This document shows positions 5,011 through 31,777 of a stretch of DNA of 32,000 bases, one piece after another; the first letter of the stretch is position 1, and each line of letters opens with the position of its first letter. Origin of the DNA: Ignicoccus islandicus DSM 13165. Its GTDB lineage: Archaea > Thermoproteota > Thermoprotei_A > Sulfolobales > Ignicoccaceae. The stretch is taken from positions 1,362,665 to 1,394,664 of the forward strand of contig NZ_CP006867.1 of NCBI RefSeq assembly GCF_001481685.1, in the 5' to 3' direction. The notes beneath the pieces were generated by a model, which was not told the DNA's origin, did not search any database, and was given only the letters and a program-made list of their open reading frames with translations. A program made the translations under genes and the position numbers.

Positions 5011-6327
5011 TTAGTCTCCTATCAGCCCATTTAAGATTGTCCTTAGTTGGGTCAAGTCCTTCGCGAAAATCCTAATCATTGCTTCCTTCCCATAGAAACC
5101 TCTATCGTAAATTACTTGGGGTATTTCGTTATACTTGTTATAGACGTACTCTACAAGCCATTTCATAGTCTTCATTCCACGTTGTTGAAGGGATCTATCA
5201 ATCTCAACTACTTTTAACCCCATCTCTCTTAATCTTTGGACATTCTCTTCCGAGTATTTTATATTAATTGCAACTTTGTAATCGCTATATTTCATGGCAT
5301 TAACGAGAAGGCGAGCTAAATGGTTTGAACCACCCCACCACGGACAGTCGCATTTCCTTAAACCTCTCGGAGTCAAATGAAGCCGACCAGGTACACCTAT
5401 TACTGTAGACACACCCCGGGATACTTCTTTTGGAATAGAACAAGCTACATTCAAACCTACCTCTGGCGCAATCTTCTTGGCCTTTTCAAAGGGCAGAGAT
5501 TCAAGCCACTTTATGAAAGCTCTATACTCTTCGTGACATTCAAATCTATAGTAAGCTAACCTAAAACTGGTCAAAACGTCGCCTACGTATCCACCATCTA
5601 AGCTTTTCACGAATCGGTGTACCACTCTCGTATAACCTATAGAGTACCTTGCTGAAGTTATTGGGTCTTTGCCAGAGGCAAGTAAGCTCGTTAGTGATGC
5701 TGCTAAGATGCTTCCGGAACCGTGAATGTTAATTGGTATTCGTTTACCTTTCATTATTAGTTCTTTTCCATTCCATCTAACGTAGTCGATAATATATTCC
5801 TCGTCTGTTCCGAAATGTCCGCCTGTAATTATCACTAGTTCTGGACCCAACTTCTGGAGTTCTTCAGCCGACCACCTTATGTCTTCTATCGAGCGAATTT
5901 TAATACCTAGGATTCTCTCCACTTCTTTTATATTAGGTGTAACTGCGTAAGACCTCTTTAGGAGTTCAAGTAGACTATTCAGCCTTCCAGTATACAATTT
6001 GCCACCAGCAGACGCTTCTAGAACTGGATCAAGAACGACCTTCGATCTAAATTCATCAACTAGGTTAGCAAGCGTATCAGCAATTGCCTCATTACATAGA
6101 GCTCCGACTTTCCATGTATCTACCTTTTCTAGATAGTTTTCCATTTGGGCTAGTAAAACTTCCTTATTAACACACGTTCCTCCAGCGAACATAGAAGTAG
6201 TTTGAAAAGTTATCATTGTAACAATTGGATGGAAATGAACATTGAAAACCTCTCCAACTTTCACATCGGTCTCTATACCGGCTCCAGCCGACGGATCAAG
6301 GCCACCAATGGTAAGTGCTCTTCTCAA
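5011..6327 (-). CDS. thiDN: bifunctional hydroxymethylpyrimidine/phosphomethylpyrimidine kinase and thiamine-phosphate synthase (ThiD-ThiN fusion)
   Basis: The N-terminal LTIGGLDPSAGAGIETDVK is the ThiD signature. The ~170-aa C-terminal extension is typical of the archaeal ThiN domain. TTG start. Confidence 0.85.
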   Translation of the reverse strand: MRRALTIGGLDPSAGAGIETDVKVGEVFNVHFHPIVTMITFQTTSMFAGGTCVNKEVLLAQMENYLEKVDTWKVGALCNEAIADTLANLVDEFRSKVVLDPVLEASAGGKLYTGRLNSLLELLKRSYAVTPNIKEVERILGIKIRSIEDIRWSAEELQKLGPELVIITGGHFGTDEEYIIDYVRWNGKELIMKGKRIPINIHGSGSILAASLTSLLASGKDPITSARYSIGYTRVVHRFVKSLDGGYVGDVLTSFRLAYYRFECHEEYRAFIKWLESLPFEKAKKIAPEVGLNVACSIPKEVSRGVSTVIGVPGRLHLTPRGLRKCDCPWWGGSNHLARLLVNAMKYSDYKVAINIKYSEENVQRLREMGLKVVEIDRSLQQRGMKTMKWLVEYVYNKYNEIPQVIYDRGFYGKEAMIRIFAKDLTQLRTILNGLIGD

Positions 6328-6362
6328 TATAACTCACCAGATAGCCGTGGGGTGTTAGAATA

Positions 6363-7202
6363 ATGAATTTTAGAAAGTATCCAGTGAAAGGGAGCAAAGT
6401 TTGTTTGAAGAGCAATAAAATAGCAGTTCTGCGACGAGAAGGTGGTCTTGCAATTATTGATGTTAATAGCAATAGCGTTAGGTTAATAGGAGGTTTCTTC
6501 GTATTCAAGGACTTTGCATGGGGGACGAACCGAATTGCTGCTTTAACTCATAACGTAGCGATGCTATATGATCACGATGGAACCCTTTATAAAGTAATTA
6601 AGTTCGACAGTGAGGCGTCAACTGTTGCATACCTAAATAATTTCTATTTAGTTGGTACAACTGATGGTAACTTAGTTAAATTCAATGAAGACGGACAAGT
6701 TATCTGGAAGAAGAAAATATGGGATGGTAGCATAGATAGAATAGATCTAACGCAGAGTGGATACATCATAGTGGTCGCATCTTCAACAAATATGGTTCTA
6801 CTTAATCAAAATGGGGATGTGATTACAACTCATAGTTACCAATGGGATCTAACTAGAGTTGCTTGGACCAGTGATTTGAGCTTCCTAGCGGTGCCTGTTC
6901 AAAACTATGTTATTATATATAGATGGGATGAGAAACAAGGGTACGTTAAGGACAAGGAAATTAGAGTAAATAGCGTTAGGAAGCTCAAGTGGTGTGAAAA
7001 TAAACTTGCCATTGCTGATTACAAGGAATTTCTTGTCCTTGAGTACTCTAAATCATCTATATCGTTGCGTCTAAGGCTTGAGGTTATAGACTTCAGTTGG
7101 AATGAAGAATGTAGAGATCTAACCTTACTATCCCCAAATTACCTCTACTACTTGAAAGACGTAAATTCAATTGCAACAAGTATATCATCTTCATCAGCGT
7201 AA
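6363..7202 (+). CDS. PQQ-like/WD40-like beta-propeller repeat protein, function unknown
   Basis: Repeated blades such as GTTDGNLVKFNEDGQVIWKKKI and LLNQNGDVITTH. The 3' end overlaps the convergent channel gene by 55 nt. Confidence 0.6.
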   Translation: MNFRKYPVKGSKVCLKSNKIAVLRREGGLAIIDVNSNSVRLIGGFFVFKDFAWGTNRIAALTHNVAMLYDHDGTLYKVIKFDSEASTVAYLNNFYLVGTTDGNLVKFNEDGQVIWKKKIWDGSIDRIDLTQSGYIIVVASSTNMVLLNQNGDVITTHSYQWDLTRVAWTSDLSFLAVPVQNYVIIYRWDEKQGYVKDKEIRVNSVRKLKWCENKLAIADYKEFLVLEYSKSSISLRLRLEVIDFSWNEECRDLTLLSPNYLYYLKDVNSIATSISSSSA

Positions 7203-19200: not shown

Positions 19201-19770
19201 CTATTTAATTATTTTTATTCTATTCGATTTTAAGTCAAGGTAGAAGTTAATGTAAGATATTACGTGCGAAGCTAAATAACTCTTTTTACCGATTGATATT
19301 ACTTGTGAAGGACGTACGTCGCTGGGTAAGTCTATATCATGTTGTGGACCAATAACGAAAGCTAGGGTCTTGAAATACTTTAAGGAGGTTACGTCCTCAC
19401 CTCCCTCTTTGAGGAAAATGATGGGCATCTTTAGATTTTTAAGAACGAACTCGAACGAATCGCGAGTTCTTGTACAACCCTTCGATAACCCTAACATACA
19501 TTTCCTAATACATTTGATTGCATCAATCTCAGTTCTGAGATCACAATCTAGCGACTTACCATCGAAATATAGCGTCAGTGGGGGGTTAGGCGGTCCTTCG
19601 AGGGTTACAATAAATTGGGCATCTTTTCTAACACCTTTCGTAGTCCATAGACTTGCTCTCAACATTCTAGCAATTACGTCGAGACGACCCGTTCGCGATG
19701 CAATACCTTTCCCCGGAAAATATGGCGAGGTTGTTGCGGTAAGGGATCGGGTTATGAACAATCTAATCAA
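19201..19770 (-). CDS. trmY: tRNA (pseudouridine54-N1)-methyltransferase TrmY (COG1901/DUF358 SPOUT)
   Basis: GRLDVIARMLRASL, VRKDAQFIVTLEGPPNPPLTLYFDG, FLKEGGEDV, FVIGPQHDI and ISIGKKSYLASHVISYINFYLD all parallel the M. jannaschii TrmY sequence as I recall it. The TTG start is 2 nt after the rps26e stop. Confidence 0.8.
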   Translation of the reverse strand: MIRLFITRSLTATTSPYFPGKGIASRTGRLDVIARMLRASLWTTKGVRKDAQFIVTLEGPPNPPLTLYFDGKSLDCDLRTEIDAIKCIRKCMLGLSKGCTRTRDSFEFVLKNLKMPIIFLKEGGEDVTSLKYFKTLAFVIGPQHDIDLPSDVRPSQVISIGKKSYLASHVISYINFYLDLKSNRIKIIK

Positions 19771-19772
19771 CT

Positions 19773-20057
19773 TTAGTAGAGTCCCCTTCTCTTCCTTTCG
19801 TGCTCAGGTCTAACCTTCACTAAACCATAGTGTACAGCGCAGCTTACGCAATAACATTTAGTTAGTTTATACTTTGGTATTATTGCGCCCTTCTTTTCAA
19901 GTTCCCTTGCGAGCTGAGGATCGACTGGGCTATACCACTTGGTTACACAGATTGCTTTATCGGCTGGTATTAACCTCCCGCAATTGTCGCATTGAATAAC
20001 ACCACTTCTGCCTTTGTCTCCCTTGTGACGCCCCCTGTTTTCCCTCTTCTTTGGCAC
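19773..20057 (-). CDS. rps26e: 30S ribosomal protein S26e (eS26)
   Basis: MPKKRENRGRHKGDKGRSGVIQCDNCGRLIPADKAI...CYCVSCAVH is the eS26 zinc-binding pattern. GTG start. Confidence 0.9.
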   Translation of the reverse strand: MPKKRENRGRHKGDKGRSGVIQCDNCGRLIPADKAICVTKWYSPVDPQLARELEKKGAIIPKYKLTKCYCVSCAVHYGLVKVRPEHERKRRGLY

Positions 20058-21308: not shown

Positions 21309-21794
21309 GTGGTACACACAGGAATTAGCTGGGCAGCTGAAGTTCTAAGGAGGTTAAAGGGCGTTGACTTCCCAGTAACCAAGGAGCAACTAAAGGAGAG
21401 GCTTCAAGGCCTCTATTGGAGAGGCATACCTATAGAGAAGCTACTCGAAGAAATCGAGGTAGAGCAATTCGAGACTCCCGCAGAGGTCCTACACTACTTA
21501 GCTGAAGCAGCAAGGAAGCTAGAGTACAGCGGTCAAGTAGCTCCAGGCGGAAGGGTTGGAATTAGCTGGGCAGCTGAAGTTCTAAGGAGGTTAAAGGGCG
21601 TTGACTTCCCAGTAACCAAGGAGCAACTAAAGGAGAGGCTTCAAGGCCTCTATTGGAGAGGCATACCTATAGAGAAGCTACTCGAAGAAATCGAGGTAGA
21701 GCAATTCGAGACTCCCGCAGAGGTCCTACACTACTTAGCTGAAGCAGCAAGGAAGCTAGAGGAGAAGGGTTTCTCGGCTGCCACGATCGCTTAG
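21309..21794 (+). CDS. protein with two identical DUF2795-like modules
   Basis: GTG start preceded by GAGGGTGA. The 68-aa module GISWAAEVLRRLKGVDFPVTKEQLKERLQGLYWRGIPIEKLLEEIEVEQFETPAEVLHYLAEAARKLE occurs twice, joined by YSGQVAPGGRV. The LKGVDFPxxKxxL plus 'F.TPAEV' pattern resembles DUF2795. Confidence 0.75.
   Translation: MVHTGISWAAEVLRRLKGVDFPVTKEQLKERLQGLYWRGIPIEKLLEEIEVEQFETPAEVLHYLAEAARKLEYSGQVAPGGRVGISWAAEVLRRLKGVDFPVTKEQLKERLQGLYWRGIPIEKLLEEIEVEQFETPAEVLHYLAEAARKLEEKGFSAATIA
21321..21761 (+). repeat. perfect 204-bp direct tandem repeat (21321-21524 and 21558-21761) with a 33-bp unique spacer
   Basis: Base-by-base comparison of the two copies shows no mismatch. The period is 237 bp, or 79 codons, so the duplication is in frame. 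Confidence 0.95.
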
Positions 21795-21818: not shown

Positions 21819-23096
21819 TCACGTGTTTTCTAGGGTAGGTTTCTCAATCCATACAACATCCAAGCTAACGCATTTACACTCTTTTGAGAGGAAGGACGAA
21901 AAGGAGGGCTCTGTTCTACCATTATCACCACTAATCAATTCTTTAATGTAGAGTCCTCCTTCTCCTTTTATAAGTGAAATGAAGGTAGTATTATCCACTT
22001 TAGCTGCCTTCACCCAGTAAACCTTCTTGGTCCTAACCATATCTTTACGCCTGTGTAGAACCCTTGTTGGCGTTTGTTGGGAAACAATAGTATTTTGGAA
22101 GAAATCCTCGAGAGCCTTAAGTTCGTCTTCAGTTACTGTCTCGGTACATTGTACCACAGCAAAATACGTCTTTTCCTTTAACGAATCTTCTCCCTTCAAT
22201 CTCGGAACCTCGTCCTTGTTACTATACCGTATAAACTCAAAGTAAACATCGTCGTTTGAATACTTTATTTTAGTGACGTCGACGTACCTGCGTTTAGGTT
22301 TTACTACCTTAGCTATGAACGGTCTACCAGAGCCCAAAGTTCTCACATCAACGTCCTCTCGGCCTGCCGCATGAAGCACGACTTCCTTGGCCTGAAATAC
22401 ATTAAGTGCCTCTTGAAGGTAACCTTCTACGCTACACTCGTATTTCCAGATACTTTGAGAGCATCTTCTTGAGAGTTTCTTATAGATACCGTAAACGTAG
22501 ATAGGCTTTATCTGAAGCTTTAATTCATTATTCTTTAAGTCAATTATTATAGTAATGTCAGGATCAACGAAGTCTGGCTCTTTCCTTAGCTCTTCTTTGA
22601 GTATTTTACCAATCTCTCTTTTAAACGAGTTCTTTATGTTCTCGGCATATGGTAGCTTAAATTCCGCTATCAAATCTCTATGCCTCTCTTCCATTTCACC
22701 ACAATTTGTACATCCTACCACGAAGCTCTCAAATTCCATTCCATCCAGATAATCTAATATCTTCTTGGACCATGTCTTAACTAACTCATTCCAGTTGTTT
22801 CCGCAAACGTAACACCTCTTCAATTCGTGGATGTTAAGGTTCATTGCGATAGCTATCTCCTTTGTTTCTTCACTAGACAGATTGCCGAGGACGGTCACTA
22901 AACTCGATTCATCTTCTATTCCTTCCCTTACTCTTCTATCCATCTCCATTATTATAGTTCGTCGTAAAGCGGCTCCACGCTTCTCGTTACCTAACCCCTT
23001 CCCAAGTCTTGCAAACAGTGATCCCAAACAATGATCGCATAAAGGGTATTTCTTTACGATTTTAAGCGATTTCTCAATAATGTTTTGATCGTCCAC
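21819..23096 (-). CDS. pus10: tRNA pseudouridine(54/55) synthase Pus10
   Basis: N-terminal zinc module YPLCDHCLGSLFARLG...CYVCGN, a THUMP-like middle region, and a C-terminal catalytic region with GREDVDVRTLGSGRPF and GGLYIKELISGDNGRTEPS. GTG start with GGGAGGGGG 7 nt upstream. Confidence 0.88.
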   Translation of the reverse strand: MDDQNIIEKSLKIVKKYPLCDHCLGSLFARLGKGLGNEKRGAALRRTIIMEMDRRVREGIEDESSLVTVLGNLSSEETKEIAIAMNLNIHELKRCYVCGNNWNELVKTWSKKILDYLDGMEFESFVVGCTNCGEMEERHRDLIAEFKLPYAENIKNSFKREIGKILKEELRKEPDFVDPDITIIIDLKNNELKLQIKPIYVYGIYKKLSRRCSQSIWKYECSVEGYLQEALNVFQAKEVVLHAAGREDVDVRTLGSGRPFIAKVVKPKRRYVDVTKIKYSNDDVYFEFIRYSNKDEVPRLKGEDSLKEKTYFAVVQCTETVTEDELKALEDFFQNTIVSQQTPTRVLHRRKDMVRTKKVYWVKAAKVDNTTFISLIKGEGGLYIKELISGDNGRTEPSFSSFLSKECKCVSLDVVWIEKPTLENT

Positions 23097-23128
23097 ACTG
23101 GACCCCCTCCCGATTGAAACCTCAGTTC

Positions 23129-23638
23129 CTATAACGGTTCCTTGCCTTCTAGGAACCTATCAATAATTATATGGGAAATGATAACTACTTGGTCTAAAGG
23201 GTATCTCTCGCTTAAGCAATTCAGTTTAGAGGGATCTATCACAACAGGTAATCTAATATTATTAAGCGAACATTCAAGGAAGTTTTCGAAAGAAGGTGGT
23301 GGACAAGCACTGTTAACGTCTATACCCGTGATCTCCTTACCACCCTTAATGGCTCTAAGGATTCCAAGGATGCTTTCACTATCAGGATACAGTCGTCTTA
23401 CCTTTCTAGGATCGATTACTAATACCAAGTTTTCTTCAACCTTTATTACCAATCGTGTATCTCTTCTAATTGAATTAGATAGAAAAAGAGACGCGTTTAC
23501 TATTAATGGGAAAACACCGAGCTCGAAGTCGTTGCAAATTCTGACTTCTCTTAGGATACTTTCTTCGACCTCAGAGGGGGCTTTTTTGGATATGGCTCGA
23601 TCATCGCTTGTATGCTTACCAGACCCACTGGTCATCAT
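23129..23638 (-). CDS. divergent, shortened TrmY-like (SPOUT-like) protein. The family assignment is tentative.
   Basis: ASLFLSNSIRRDTRLVIKV resembles the in-window TrmY RASLWTTKGVRKDAQFIVTL, and my recollection of MJ1640 (FFLSHDIRRDVVF). LYPDSESILGILRAIKG resembles the family SPDERNIA..IKKAL motif. The C-terminal VVIISHIIIDRFLE resembles LASHVISYINFYLD. GAGG lies 6 nt upstream of the ATG. It sits 32 nt upstream of pus10. Confidence 0.6.
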   Translation of the reverse strand: MMTSGSGKHTSDDRAISKKAPSEVEESILREVRICNDFELGVFPLIVNASLFLSNSIRRDTRLVIKVEENLVLVIDPRKVRRLYPDSESILGILRAIKGGKEITGIDVNSACPPPSFENFLECSLNNIRLPVVIDPSKLNCLSERYPLDQVVIISHIIIDRFLEGKEPL

Positions 23639-23650
23639 CGGTTCCTCTAA

Positions 23651-24220
23651 TCAGTGTAAGTTTCCAATCCTTTTCACTCTGATCCTCAATACACCGTCTT
23701 GTAGCTCGCATCTAACGTCTACTCTTTCGTCCCCAGTGCCCCTTCTTCTTAACCATGTTCTAATTAACGATGCTATTAGGAAGGCTTCTGGTGAGAGTGT
23801 TATTGGTATTCCTTCTTGTTTCAGTATTTTATAAGCCGGATCGAACACGCTACCATGTATCTCAATTACTATTTCCTTATCGGATTCTTTAACTACTTTA
23901 GCTTCCTTAGCCACACCTAGTTTCTTCAGTATGTTCGTCAAGCTAGGTCCTAGAGTTCCATCATGCCCATCTAGTGATTCTTCTAGATTATTAATTAGCT
24001 TAGATTCAAGTAGTTTCGAGAGCAAGTCGCCTAGTTCCGATATTAGTATTTGGGTATATGCGATAGCTGAACTTCCGAGGACTTTATATAATACCTTTTG
24101 GTAGGCTAATATTACAGCATTGACTAGTGCTGAATCAATGCAAACGTGCTCATGAGAAAGGGTGTCAGCTTCCCTTTGGATTTCTACTTCATGTTGGAAG
24201 GAGCTTCCTGTTGGAGTCAT
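23651..24220 (-). CDS. hypothetical protein, possibly a V4R-like small-molecule-binding fold (very tentative)
   Basis: 189-aa ORF and first gene of the apparent operon with the TrmY-like gene and pus10. The C-terminal pattern EIVIEIHGSVF...SPEAFLIASLIRTWL...VDVRCELQDGVLRIRV is reminiscent of V4R domains. Confidence 0.55.
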   Translation of the reverse strand: MTPTGSSFQHEVEIQREADTLSHEHVCIDSALVNAVILAYQKVLYKVLGSSAIAYTQILISELGDLLSKLLESKLINNLEESLDGHDGTLGPSLTNILKKLGVAKEAKVVKESDKEIVIEIHGSVFDPAYKILKQEGIPITLSPEAFLIASLIRTWLRRRGTGDERVDVRCELQDGVLRIRVKRIGNLH

Positions 24221-31677: not shown

Positions 31678-31777
31678 TGGAGCCGCCGGCGGGACTTGAA
31701 CCCGCGACCACCGGCTCTCCCGCGCAAGAGTTAAAGTCGTTACAAGGCCGGCGCTCTGCCTGCTGAGCTACGGCGGC
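31678..31777 (-). tRNA. tRNA-Thr (anticodon UGU) with a 24-nt intron at the canonical 37/38 position and a genomically encoded CCA
   Basis: The reverse complement folds as acceptor GCCGCCG/CGGCGGC, D arm GCTC-AGCAGGCA-GAGC, anticodon stem CCGGC/GCCGG with loop CTTGTA|intron|A, variable TGGTC, T arm GCGGG-TTCAAGT-CCCGC, discriminator T, then CCA. It is 100 nt in total and 76 nt after intron removal. Confidence 0.85.
31717..31740 (-). other. tRNA intron (boundaries inferred)
   Basis: Removing these 24 nt restores a 7-nt anticodon loop and a 5-bp stem. The exact cut is ambiguous by one A, and I did not verify a bulge-helix-bulge fold. Confidence 0.6.

Follow-up and report, generated by a model that had tools for sequence, protein, structure and literature searches.

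SPOUT methyltransferases are defined by a deep trefoil knot, and one of them, TrmY, methylates the N1 position of pseudouridine 54 (Ψ54) in tRNA, its substrate being made by Pus10, an enzyme that in archaea has so far been treated as a stand-alone one. In Ignicoccus hospitalis, tRNA carries the unusual nucleoside m1s4Ψ54, which has been attributed to Pus10 (Igni_0342), TrmY (Igni_0291) and TtuA/TtuB (PMC7337903). Here we analyse ORF169, an open reading frame (ORF) directly upstream of pus10 in a 32,000-nucleotide stretch of the Ignicoccus islandicus DSM 13165 genome (the window), and compare it with these systems. Its product, identical (100%) to the NCBI "hypothetical protein" EYM_07890, is a very divergent TrmY homologue that is predicted to lack the knot binding S-adenosylmethionine (SAM). 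With a probability of roughly 55%, we read it as a non-catalytic TrmY derivative that is produced together with Pus10 and binds the tRNA T-arm and/or Pus10.

ORF169 is homologous to TrmY (Mj1640, HVO_1989, Igni_0291) over the N-terminal α/β half and the C-terminal helix, finds its best structural matches among the DUF358 crystal structures and is genomically tied to Pus10, the maker of the TrmY substrate. Unlike TrmY, it is devoid of the TTSPxF...GRLD and GPPNPP motifs and of the three knot loops LxExGxD, FxLG and SLGP, scores far below the family thresholds, contains a four-cysteine (Cys4) linker and coexists with a bona fide TrmY. Nep1/Emg1 (COG1756), the rRNA pseudouridine N1-methyltransferase, is likewise a SPOUT relative acting on pseudouridine N1 and gives weak structural matches to ORF169, but it is much more distant, retains a full knot and has no sequence-level match. 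The elements of the window on which the comparison rests are the following.

23129..23638, minus strand: ORF169 (EYM_07890), TrmY-like protein of 169 aa, predicted to be knot-less (ORF list, NCBI identity, TrmY homology, AlphaFold2 model and Foldseek matches)
21819..23096, minus strand: pus10, tRNA pseudouridine 54/55 synthase, with a GTG start at 23094-23096, directly downstream of ORF169 and co-oriented with it
23103..23111, minus strand: GGGAGGGGG, strong Shine-Dalgarno sequence 6 nt upstream of the pus10 GTG, within the 32-nt spacer (read directly)
19201..19770, minus strand: canonical full-length TrmY paralogue with intact LKEGGED, FVIGPQHD and ISIGKKSYLASH (PF04013, 69.4 bits versus a cut-off of 25.5)
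19773-20057: gene for ribosomal protein S26e, with trmY directly downstream

Homology of ORF169 to TrmY

BLASTP aligned ORF169 with the in-window TrmY at 25% identity over 101 aa (E = 0.001), and the NCBIfam TrmY model NF002560 matched residues 46-100 to profile positions 35-94 (E = 7.6e-5), with Pfam PF04013 giving E = 0.052. The curated thresholds of both models were missed (13.7 bits versus 25.5 for PF04013 and 22.3 bits versus 183 for NF002560). A phmmer search with ORF169 against PDB sequences gave no match, and a word-indexed protein search recovered nothing beyond EYM_07890 itself. Exhaustive phmmer among 1.84 billion representative proteins returned only seven relatives; the close ones are three (P0002-P0004; 135-151 aa, 39-43% identity), as are the remote ones (168-176 aa). 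The best family match of every relative is TrmY, down to E = 2.6e-11, and a profile of the relatives reached 20 proteins grading into PF04013. For all six members of the short subfamily, PF04013 is the top Pfam match, yet none reaches the cut-off (best E = 0.0013). When the six were compared as a profile with 13 canonical TrmYs by hhalign, the probability of homology was 96.6% (E = 5.6e-10) over 123 columns, in a match that begins at helix 1 and ends with the C-terminal helix.

The AlphaFold2 model of ORF169, computed from a 37-sequence alignment, has a mean predicted local distance difference test (pLDDT) score of 90 and a predicted TM-score (pTM) of 0.80; a single-sequence run was unusable (pLDDT 39). 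Foldseek of the model against the PDB ranked four DUF358/TrmY structures first, in its top five hits (E = 9e-6 to 1.4e-4, TMq 0.52-0.59), namely Mj1640 (3AI9, 3AIA), VCA1059 (2QWV) and AF_1056 (2QMM), with Nep1 next (E = 0.05-0.3). We regard it as established that ORF169 is a genuine, very divergent homologue of TrmY (COG1901/PF04013/DUF358), despite failing the curated thresholds. The initial annotation, made from the sequence alone, had proposed this relationship from three local matches, all of which lie inside statistically supported alignments, and the profile and fold searches lead to the TrmY/DUF358 SPOUT family and nowhere else.

Internal deletions and the predicted loss of the knot

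The alignments and the model divide ORF169 into four parts, all on the minus strand.

23552..23638, minus strand: residues 1-29, charged N-terminal extension of low confidence (pLDDT 65-69), present only in I. islandicus and at locus L093
23312..23551, minus strand: residues 30-109, TrmY-type N-terminal half, β1-α1-β2-β3-α2-β4 (alignments A1/A2/A6, hhalign, model secondary structure)
23198..23311, minus strand: residues 110-147, short Cys-containing linker predicted to replace the SAM-binding knot region (missing canonical segments, Cys conservation)
23150..23197, minus strand: residues 148-163, C-terminal helix LDQVVIISHIIIDRFL, homologous to the last TrmY helix (hhalign; helix in the model)

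The retained N-terminal half carries the family-wide motifs LSNSIRRD (R58, D60) and YPDSES (P85, D86, S89) together with G92 and G105, and D160 in the C-terminal helix forms an invariant column of alignment A2; helix 1 and the C-terminal helix are the best conserved parts of the protein. In between, the stretch that joins the conserved Gly following helix 2 to the invariant Asp of the C-terminal helix counts 56 residues in ORF169 versus 82 in the in-window TrmY. In canonical TrmYs, the knot region comprises three strands and two helices and carries the loops LxExGxD, FxLGxxxD and (I/V)SxG(P/K), whereas the 38 residues 110-147 of the ORF169 model, which link β4 to the last helix, contain only a single strand (132-134) and a helix of one turn. 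The canonical columns L120, E122, G124, F138, G141, S159 and G161 are deleted or replaced, and no counterparts of FLKEGGEDV, FVIGPQHDI and ISIGK were found in alignments A2 and A4 or in a 26-sequence re-alignment, so that alignments and model bear out the initial annotation, which had reported the first two of these segments as apparently missing. The label "truncated", previously given to the protein, does not hold, as neither end is lost; the deletions are internal and have removed ~26 aa from the knot half and ~20 aa from the N-terminal half. Likewise, a charged N-terminal extension does exist, but it is ~29 aa long and not ~45 aa as first thought, the other homologues beginning at ORF169 residues 28-30.

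The same extension, beginning MMNSGSGK (consensus MMxSGSGK), is found in the closest relative, at locus L093 (53% identity). An internal start codon that would remove it was considered and rejected: residues 28-29 are encoded by ATC CTA, which leaves the ATG ATG start as the sole option, and the extension is common to L093. The NCBI start of EYM_07890 is the second ATG.

The assignment of the TrmY motifs to SAM binding follows general knowledge of SPOUT proteins, in which the knot elements form the SAM-binding trefoil knot (PMC1829167, PMC9508554); PMC13171889 gives no detail on the SAM pocket at the level of residues. The proposal that ORF169 is still an enzyme, a minimal methyltransferase for Ψ54 or another pseudouridine with a rebuilt cofactor site, is in line with purifying selection on the gene, with the family-wide conservation of R-x-D and the C-terminal Asp and with the reliance of SPOUT SAM binding largely on backbone contacts. 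The knot strands and loops are predicted to be physically absent, however, an intact TrmY is encoded in the same genomes, and no SPOUT enzyme is known to work without the knot (PMC1829167, PMC9508554), which makes this proposal very improbable; the initial annotation had offered a methyltransferase for another pseudouridine as one alternative, and the missing SAM-binding region speaks against it.

In place of the knot, the short subfamily has acquired cysteines. All six members share the conserved Cys35, Cys112, Cys123 and Cys141, and ORF169 and L093 contain exactly these four and no others, which suggests disulfides or a structural site for Zn or another metal. One could also imagine that the four-Cys site binds an Fe-S cluster or carries a persulfide and that ORF169 directs TtuA/TtuB-type thiolation to (m1)Ψ54, yielding m1s4Ψ54. 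The four conserved Cys are specific to the short Ignicoccus-type subclade, Cys-rich motifs (GCPGC and a C-terminal CGC) recur in shortened Pyrodictiaceae copies, and m1s4Ψ54 exists in I. hospitalis (PMC7337903). This case is purely circumstantial, though; in proteins of hyperthermophiles, a Cys4 site usually holds structural Zn or forms disulfides, and linkage to ttuA/ttuB occurs in none of the loci examined, so that we deem a role in thiolation highly unlikely.

Conserved coupling to pus10

Downstream of ORF169, pus10 was identified by TIGR01213 (E = 1.1e-115; 386.7 bits versus a cut-off of 200) and by the Pfam domains Pus10_C and Pus10_THUMP_arc. The sequence reads as the initial annotation had it, with 12 nt separating ORF169 from the gene upstream, 32 nt separating it from the pus10 GTG, and a strong Shine-Dalgarno sequence ahead of pus10. 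In every context derived from the protein family (nine further; loci L001-L010, L091 and L093), the TrmY-like gene lies directly upstream of pus10 in the same orientation, with a gap or overlap of at most 34 nt, spacing that fits co-transcription and perhaps also coupled translation. The usual cluster is eIF5A-SRP54-[gene]-pus10-L21e-Rpb4-DUF655-KsgA.

For an unbiased sample, 80 loci in species-representative genomes were chosen solely by Pus10, through a scan with a Pus10 alignment; a contig scan with a single Pus10 protein had found nothing. A TrmY-like ORF is present upstream of pus10 in 24 of the 80 loci and abuts it in 22, from the Desulfurococcales, Pyrodictiaceae, Thermofilaceae, Methanomethylicia, Culexmicrobium, Jordarchaeia and Freyarchaeota (Thermoproteota and Asgard), the other two being Methanosarcina copies 340-400 nt from pus10. 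In most of the remaining loci, chiefly from Bathyarchaeia, SRP54 abuts pus10 directly. Because pus10-abutting TrmY-like genes recur across Pus10 loci, ORF169 occupies an ancient slot upstream of pus10, and the linkage posited for I. islandicus is conserved well beyond it.

The adjacency of SRP54 and pus10, with or without a TrmY-like gene between them, extends over Bathyarchaeia, Nitrososphaeria, Thermoprotei and Methanomethylicia (L001-L090), and is usually followed by L21e-Rpb4-DUF655-KsgA.

An intact TrmY in the same genomes

The canonical TrmY that the initial annotation had placed at 19201-19770 passes the PF04013 cut-off by a wide margin, as listed above. It is 62% identical to an I. hospitalis protein, presumably Igni_0291, which has been named as the TrmY candidate of that species (PMC7337903). 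In seven of the seven Ignicoccus-type loci examined (the window and L091-L096), the canonical trmY lies directly downstream of the S26e gene, at most 10 nt away. The short copy and an intact TrmY occur together in three genomes, those of the window, L093 (GCA_054020855.1) and L091 (GCA_054016855.1), and the gene order at L093, ORF189-short copy-pus10 ... S26e-trmY, is that of the window. The locus of P0035 (20.6 kb, reaching 10 kb to either side) contains no pus10 and hence adds no case of co-occurrence.

The S26e-trmY pair often follows the cluster S19e-L39e-L31e-eIF6. This S26e linkage sets the canonical trmY apart from the pus10-linked genes of the other clade.

The co-occurrence of the two proteins in three genomes bears on a further explanation, in which ORF169 would be an inactive heterodimer partner of the S26e-linked TrmY, joined to it through the C-terminal helix and lending it specificity or the ability to bind RNA, much as Trm6 assists Trm61. 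SPOUT enzymes are, from general knowledge and PMC9508554, obligate dimers with interface active sites built partly from the C-terminal helix, which together with helix 1 is what ORF169 conserves best. Nevertheless, the ORF169 gene is coupled to pus10, whereas trmY always adjoins the S26e gene, and at L096 no pus10 was found within 10 kb of trmY, leaving such a heterodimer an unlikely arrangement.

In the Trm6-Trm61 and METTL3-METTL14 complexes, Trm6 and METTL14 are paralogues dead in cofactor binding that are kept as RNA-binding or scaffolding partners. The likeness to ORF169 is a functional analogy only, that of a paralogue without cofactor binding retained as a partner: the two complexes are built on the Rossmann fold and their inactive partners keep the whole fold, whereas the cofactor-binding half appears to be deleted from ORF169, whose genomic partner is a pseudouridine synthase and not an active paralogue.

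The pus10-abutting TrmY-like clade

A neighbour-joining (NJ) tree separates a canonical clade (the in-window TrmY and its relatives, the Methanosarcina copies and one annotated TrmY) from a clade that holds all pus10-abutting copies from Thermoproteota and Asgard, including ORF169, indicating that ORF169 probably belongs to an old pus10-abutting clade and did not arise by recent duplication of the in-window TrmY. The proteins of this clade (among them P0017 of Methanomethylicota, automatically named TrmY, P0006 and those of L011-L072) occupy the same SRP54-[gene]-pus10 slot and have in common with ORF169 the motifs LLLSHxIRRD, VRNLRPDxES and NxxLDR; they differ in that an additional canonical TrmY has been shown only for Ignicoccus-type genomes. 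The canonical N-terminal motifs TTSPxF...GRLD and GPPNPP, conserved in alignment A7, are absent from the whole clade. Most members are 160-190 aa long and keep the middle β-α-β region with non-canonical loops, whereas in the Ignicoccus-type subclade (135-176 aa) the middle region is deleted and four Cys are gained.

Among the Pyrodictiaceae, the copies are shortened (157-169 aa) and Cys-rich, with GCPGC and a C-terminal CGC or CGGCC (L013:5541-6014, L025:378-866, L083:5466-5975). In these copies, too, the middle region has apparently been deleted, and their shortening, together with a putative metal site, may have arisen in parallel or be common to both groups. The Asgard pus10-abutting copies (L050, L055 and L064; 207 aa) are also without the canonical Gly motifs.

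A full-text literature search, which included the Ignicoccus tRNA paper and reviews of SPOUT proteins and of the T-loop, turned up no account of a second TrmY relative that lacks the knot and is linked to pus10, nor was a description of the pus10-abutting TrmY-like clade found in the literature searched, in agreement with the earlier impression that no such protein had been described. ORF169 is best classed, on its predicted structure, as a SPOUT/TrmY derivative without the knot that defines the family.

A broader and more speculative reading, which we hold to be doubtful, sees in the TrmY-like proteins encoded next to pus10 in Thermoproteota and Asgard a SPOUT-derived family of Pus10 cofactors and not Ψ54 methyltransferases. 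The Ignicoccus-type proteins would be its extreme, knot-less Cys4 form, stoichiometric with Pus10, setting Ψ54-versus-Ψ55 specificity or channelling the T-loop to the enzymes that make m1s4Ψ54. If true, it would be the first case of a pseudoenzyme derived from a SPOUT protein, and also the first in which a stand-alone pseudouridine synthase of archaea has a protein cofactor. In any case, the tight coupling to pus10, often through overlapping genes, across Thermoproteota and Asgard suggests that archaeal Pus10 may have a partner protein, and this separate, motif-divergent clade may prove a more consequential finding than ORF169 itself. Since automatic annotation names some of its full-length members TrmY (P0017), genome-based predictions of m1Ψ54 in Thermoproteota may err both ways.

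Selection on the ORF169 gene

Between the window and L093, the synonymous substitution rate (dS) is saturated in all six gene pairs, so that dN/dS is not computable and only the non-synonymous rate (dN) can be compared: it amounts to 0.36 for ORF169, 0.24 for Pus10, 0.29 for TrmY, 0.43 for ORF189, the gene upstream of ORF169, and 0.04 for S26e. The value for ORF169 is about 1.3-1.5 times those of Pus10 and TrmY. Among the six short sequences, which are 37-53% identical to ORF169, 21 columns are invariant. From the saturated dS with modest dN and from these invariant columns, we conclude that the gene is maintained under purifying selection and is not decaying.

The faster evolution of ORF169 (dN of 0.36 versus 0.24-0.29 for its neighbours), its large internal deletions and its very few relatives (seven among 1.84 billion representative proteins) would also be expected of a functionless relic of an ancestral pus10-linked trmY, carried along in the pus10 transcription unit. 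Such a relic, however, would hardly have kept its frame open in at least six genomes with the proteins so far diverged and dS saturated, preserved the invariant residues together with a newly acquired, conserved Cys pattern, or retained a confidently predicted fold and a Shine-Dalgarno sequence of its own, and we consider this explanation distinctly unlikely. That a SPOUT member which has discarded the knot should be under selection suggests instead that the non-knot half may function alone, probably in binding RNA or a partner.

A putative non-catalytic partner of Pus10

The reading we favour, that of a non-catalytic TrmY derivative made with Pus10, is in line with the putative non-catalytic partner or specificity factor of the initial annotation and can be set out as follows. 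ORF169 would descend from an old TrmY-like lineage immediately upstream of pus10 and be co-expressed with it, N1-methylation of Ψ54 in the Ignicoccus lineage presumably being carried out by the separate, intact, S26e-adjacent TrmY. The pus10-coupled copy would have lost the β-α-β core and the glycine loops that bind SAM and would most likely be unable to methylate anything. What it retains is the N-terminal α/β half, whose R-x-D and P-D-x-x-S motifs may form a surface facing RNA or pseudouridine, and the C-terminal helix, which in SPOUT enzymes is a dimer interface; the four Cys, where the knot was, may hold a structural Zn or other metal or form disulfides. As a non-catalytic subunit binding the tRNA T-arm and/or Pus10, the protein could help the formation of Ψ54/Ψ55 or pass the product to TrmY and to the enzymes whose thiolation step yields m1s4Ψ54, and it is thus a candidate component of the Ignicoccus pathway to that nucleoside. 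An accessory role is probable because the intact TrmY covers the methylation step and ORF169 is without the cofactor-binding region.

Several points weigh against this reading. The analysis establishes the homology, the fold, the missing knot segments, the conserved synteny, the co-occurrence with an intact TrmY and purifying selection; we infer the loss of SAM binding, the binding of metal and of RNA or Pus10, and the accessory role, and our case for an interaction with Pus10, TrmY or tRNA is indirect. The absence of the knot is judged from sequence length and predicted secondary structure, and the alignment behind the AlphaFold2 model included canonical TrmYs, which may inflate both the resemblance and the confidence. 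SPOUT enzymes bind SAM largely via backbone atoms, and loss of motifs alone is no proof of lost binding; the argument for ORF169 accordingly rests on the missing strands. The NJ tree, built from 171 poorly conserved columns with no bootstrap, is indicative only, some full-length members of the pus10-abutting clade may be real methyltransferases, and the 80-locus sample contains no Ignicoccus genome (best Pus10 identity 40%), with I. hospitalis lying outside the short-copy comparison.

Other features of the window

Upstream of ORF169, two elements complete the local gene layout.

23644..23647, minus strand: GAGG, Shine-Dalgarno-like sequence in the 12-nt spacer between ORF189 and ORF169 (read directly)
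23651..24220, minus strand: ORF189, conserved hypothetical protein, whose gene opens the apparent ORF189-ORF169-pus10 unit of Ignicoccus-type genomes

Homologues of ORF189 occupy the same position at L093 (52% identity) and L091 (41%). Scans of ORF189 against Pfam, NCBIfam and PDB profiles gave no family assignment; only weak resemblances emerged, to the helical C-terminal region of Hmd hydrogenase (E = 1.4e-4 with NCBIfam, E = 0.05 with a PDB profile) and to MJ0223 (E = 0.017). At L091, an extra ORF of 172 aa with no family match (6255-6773, minus strand) separates the ORF189 homologue from the short TrmY-like gene. The possibility that ORF169 is a chance ORF opposite 23142-23834 on the plus strand was rejected, given its homologues and fold.

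Elsewhere in the window, a DUF2795 gene (21309-21794, plus strand) contains a perfect 237-bp tandem duplication at 21321-21761 (1.9 copies, 100% match), its product consisting of two identical 67-aa repeats; the homologue at L093 is an 82-aa single-copy protein and that at L091 has 162 aa. The duplication is either very recent or else an assembly artefact. Finally, ARAGORN reports no tRNA in the window, yet 31681-31777 (minus strand, 97 nt) matches the full Rfam tRNA model with 62 bits and is probably an intron-containing archaeal tRNA.

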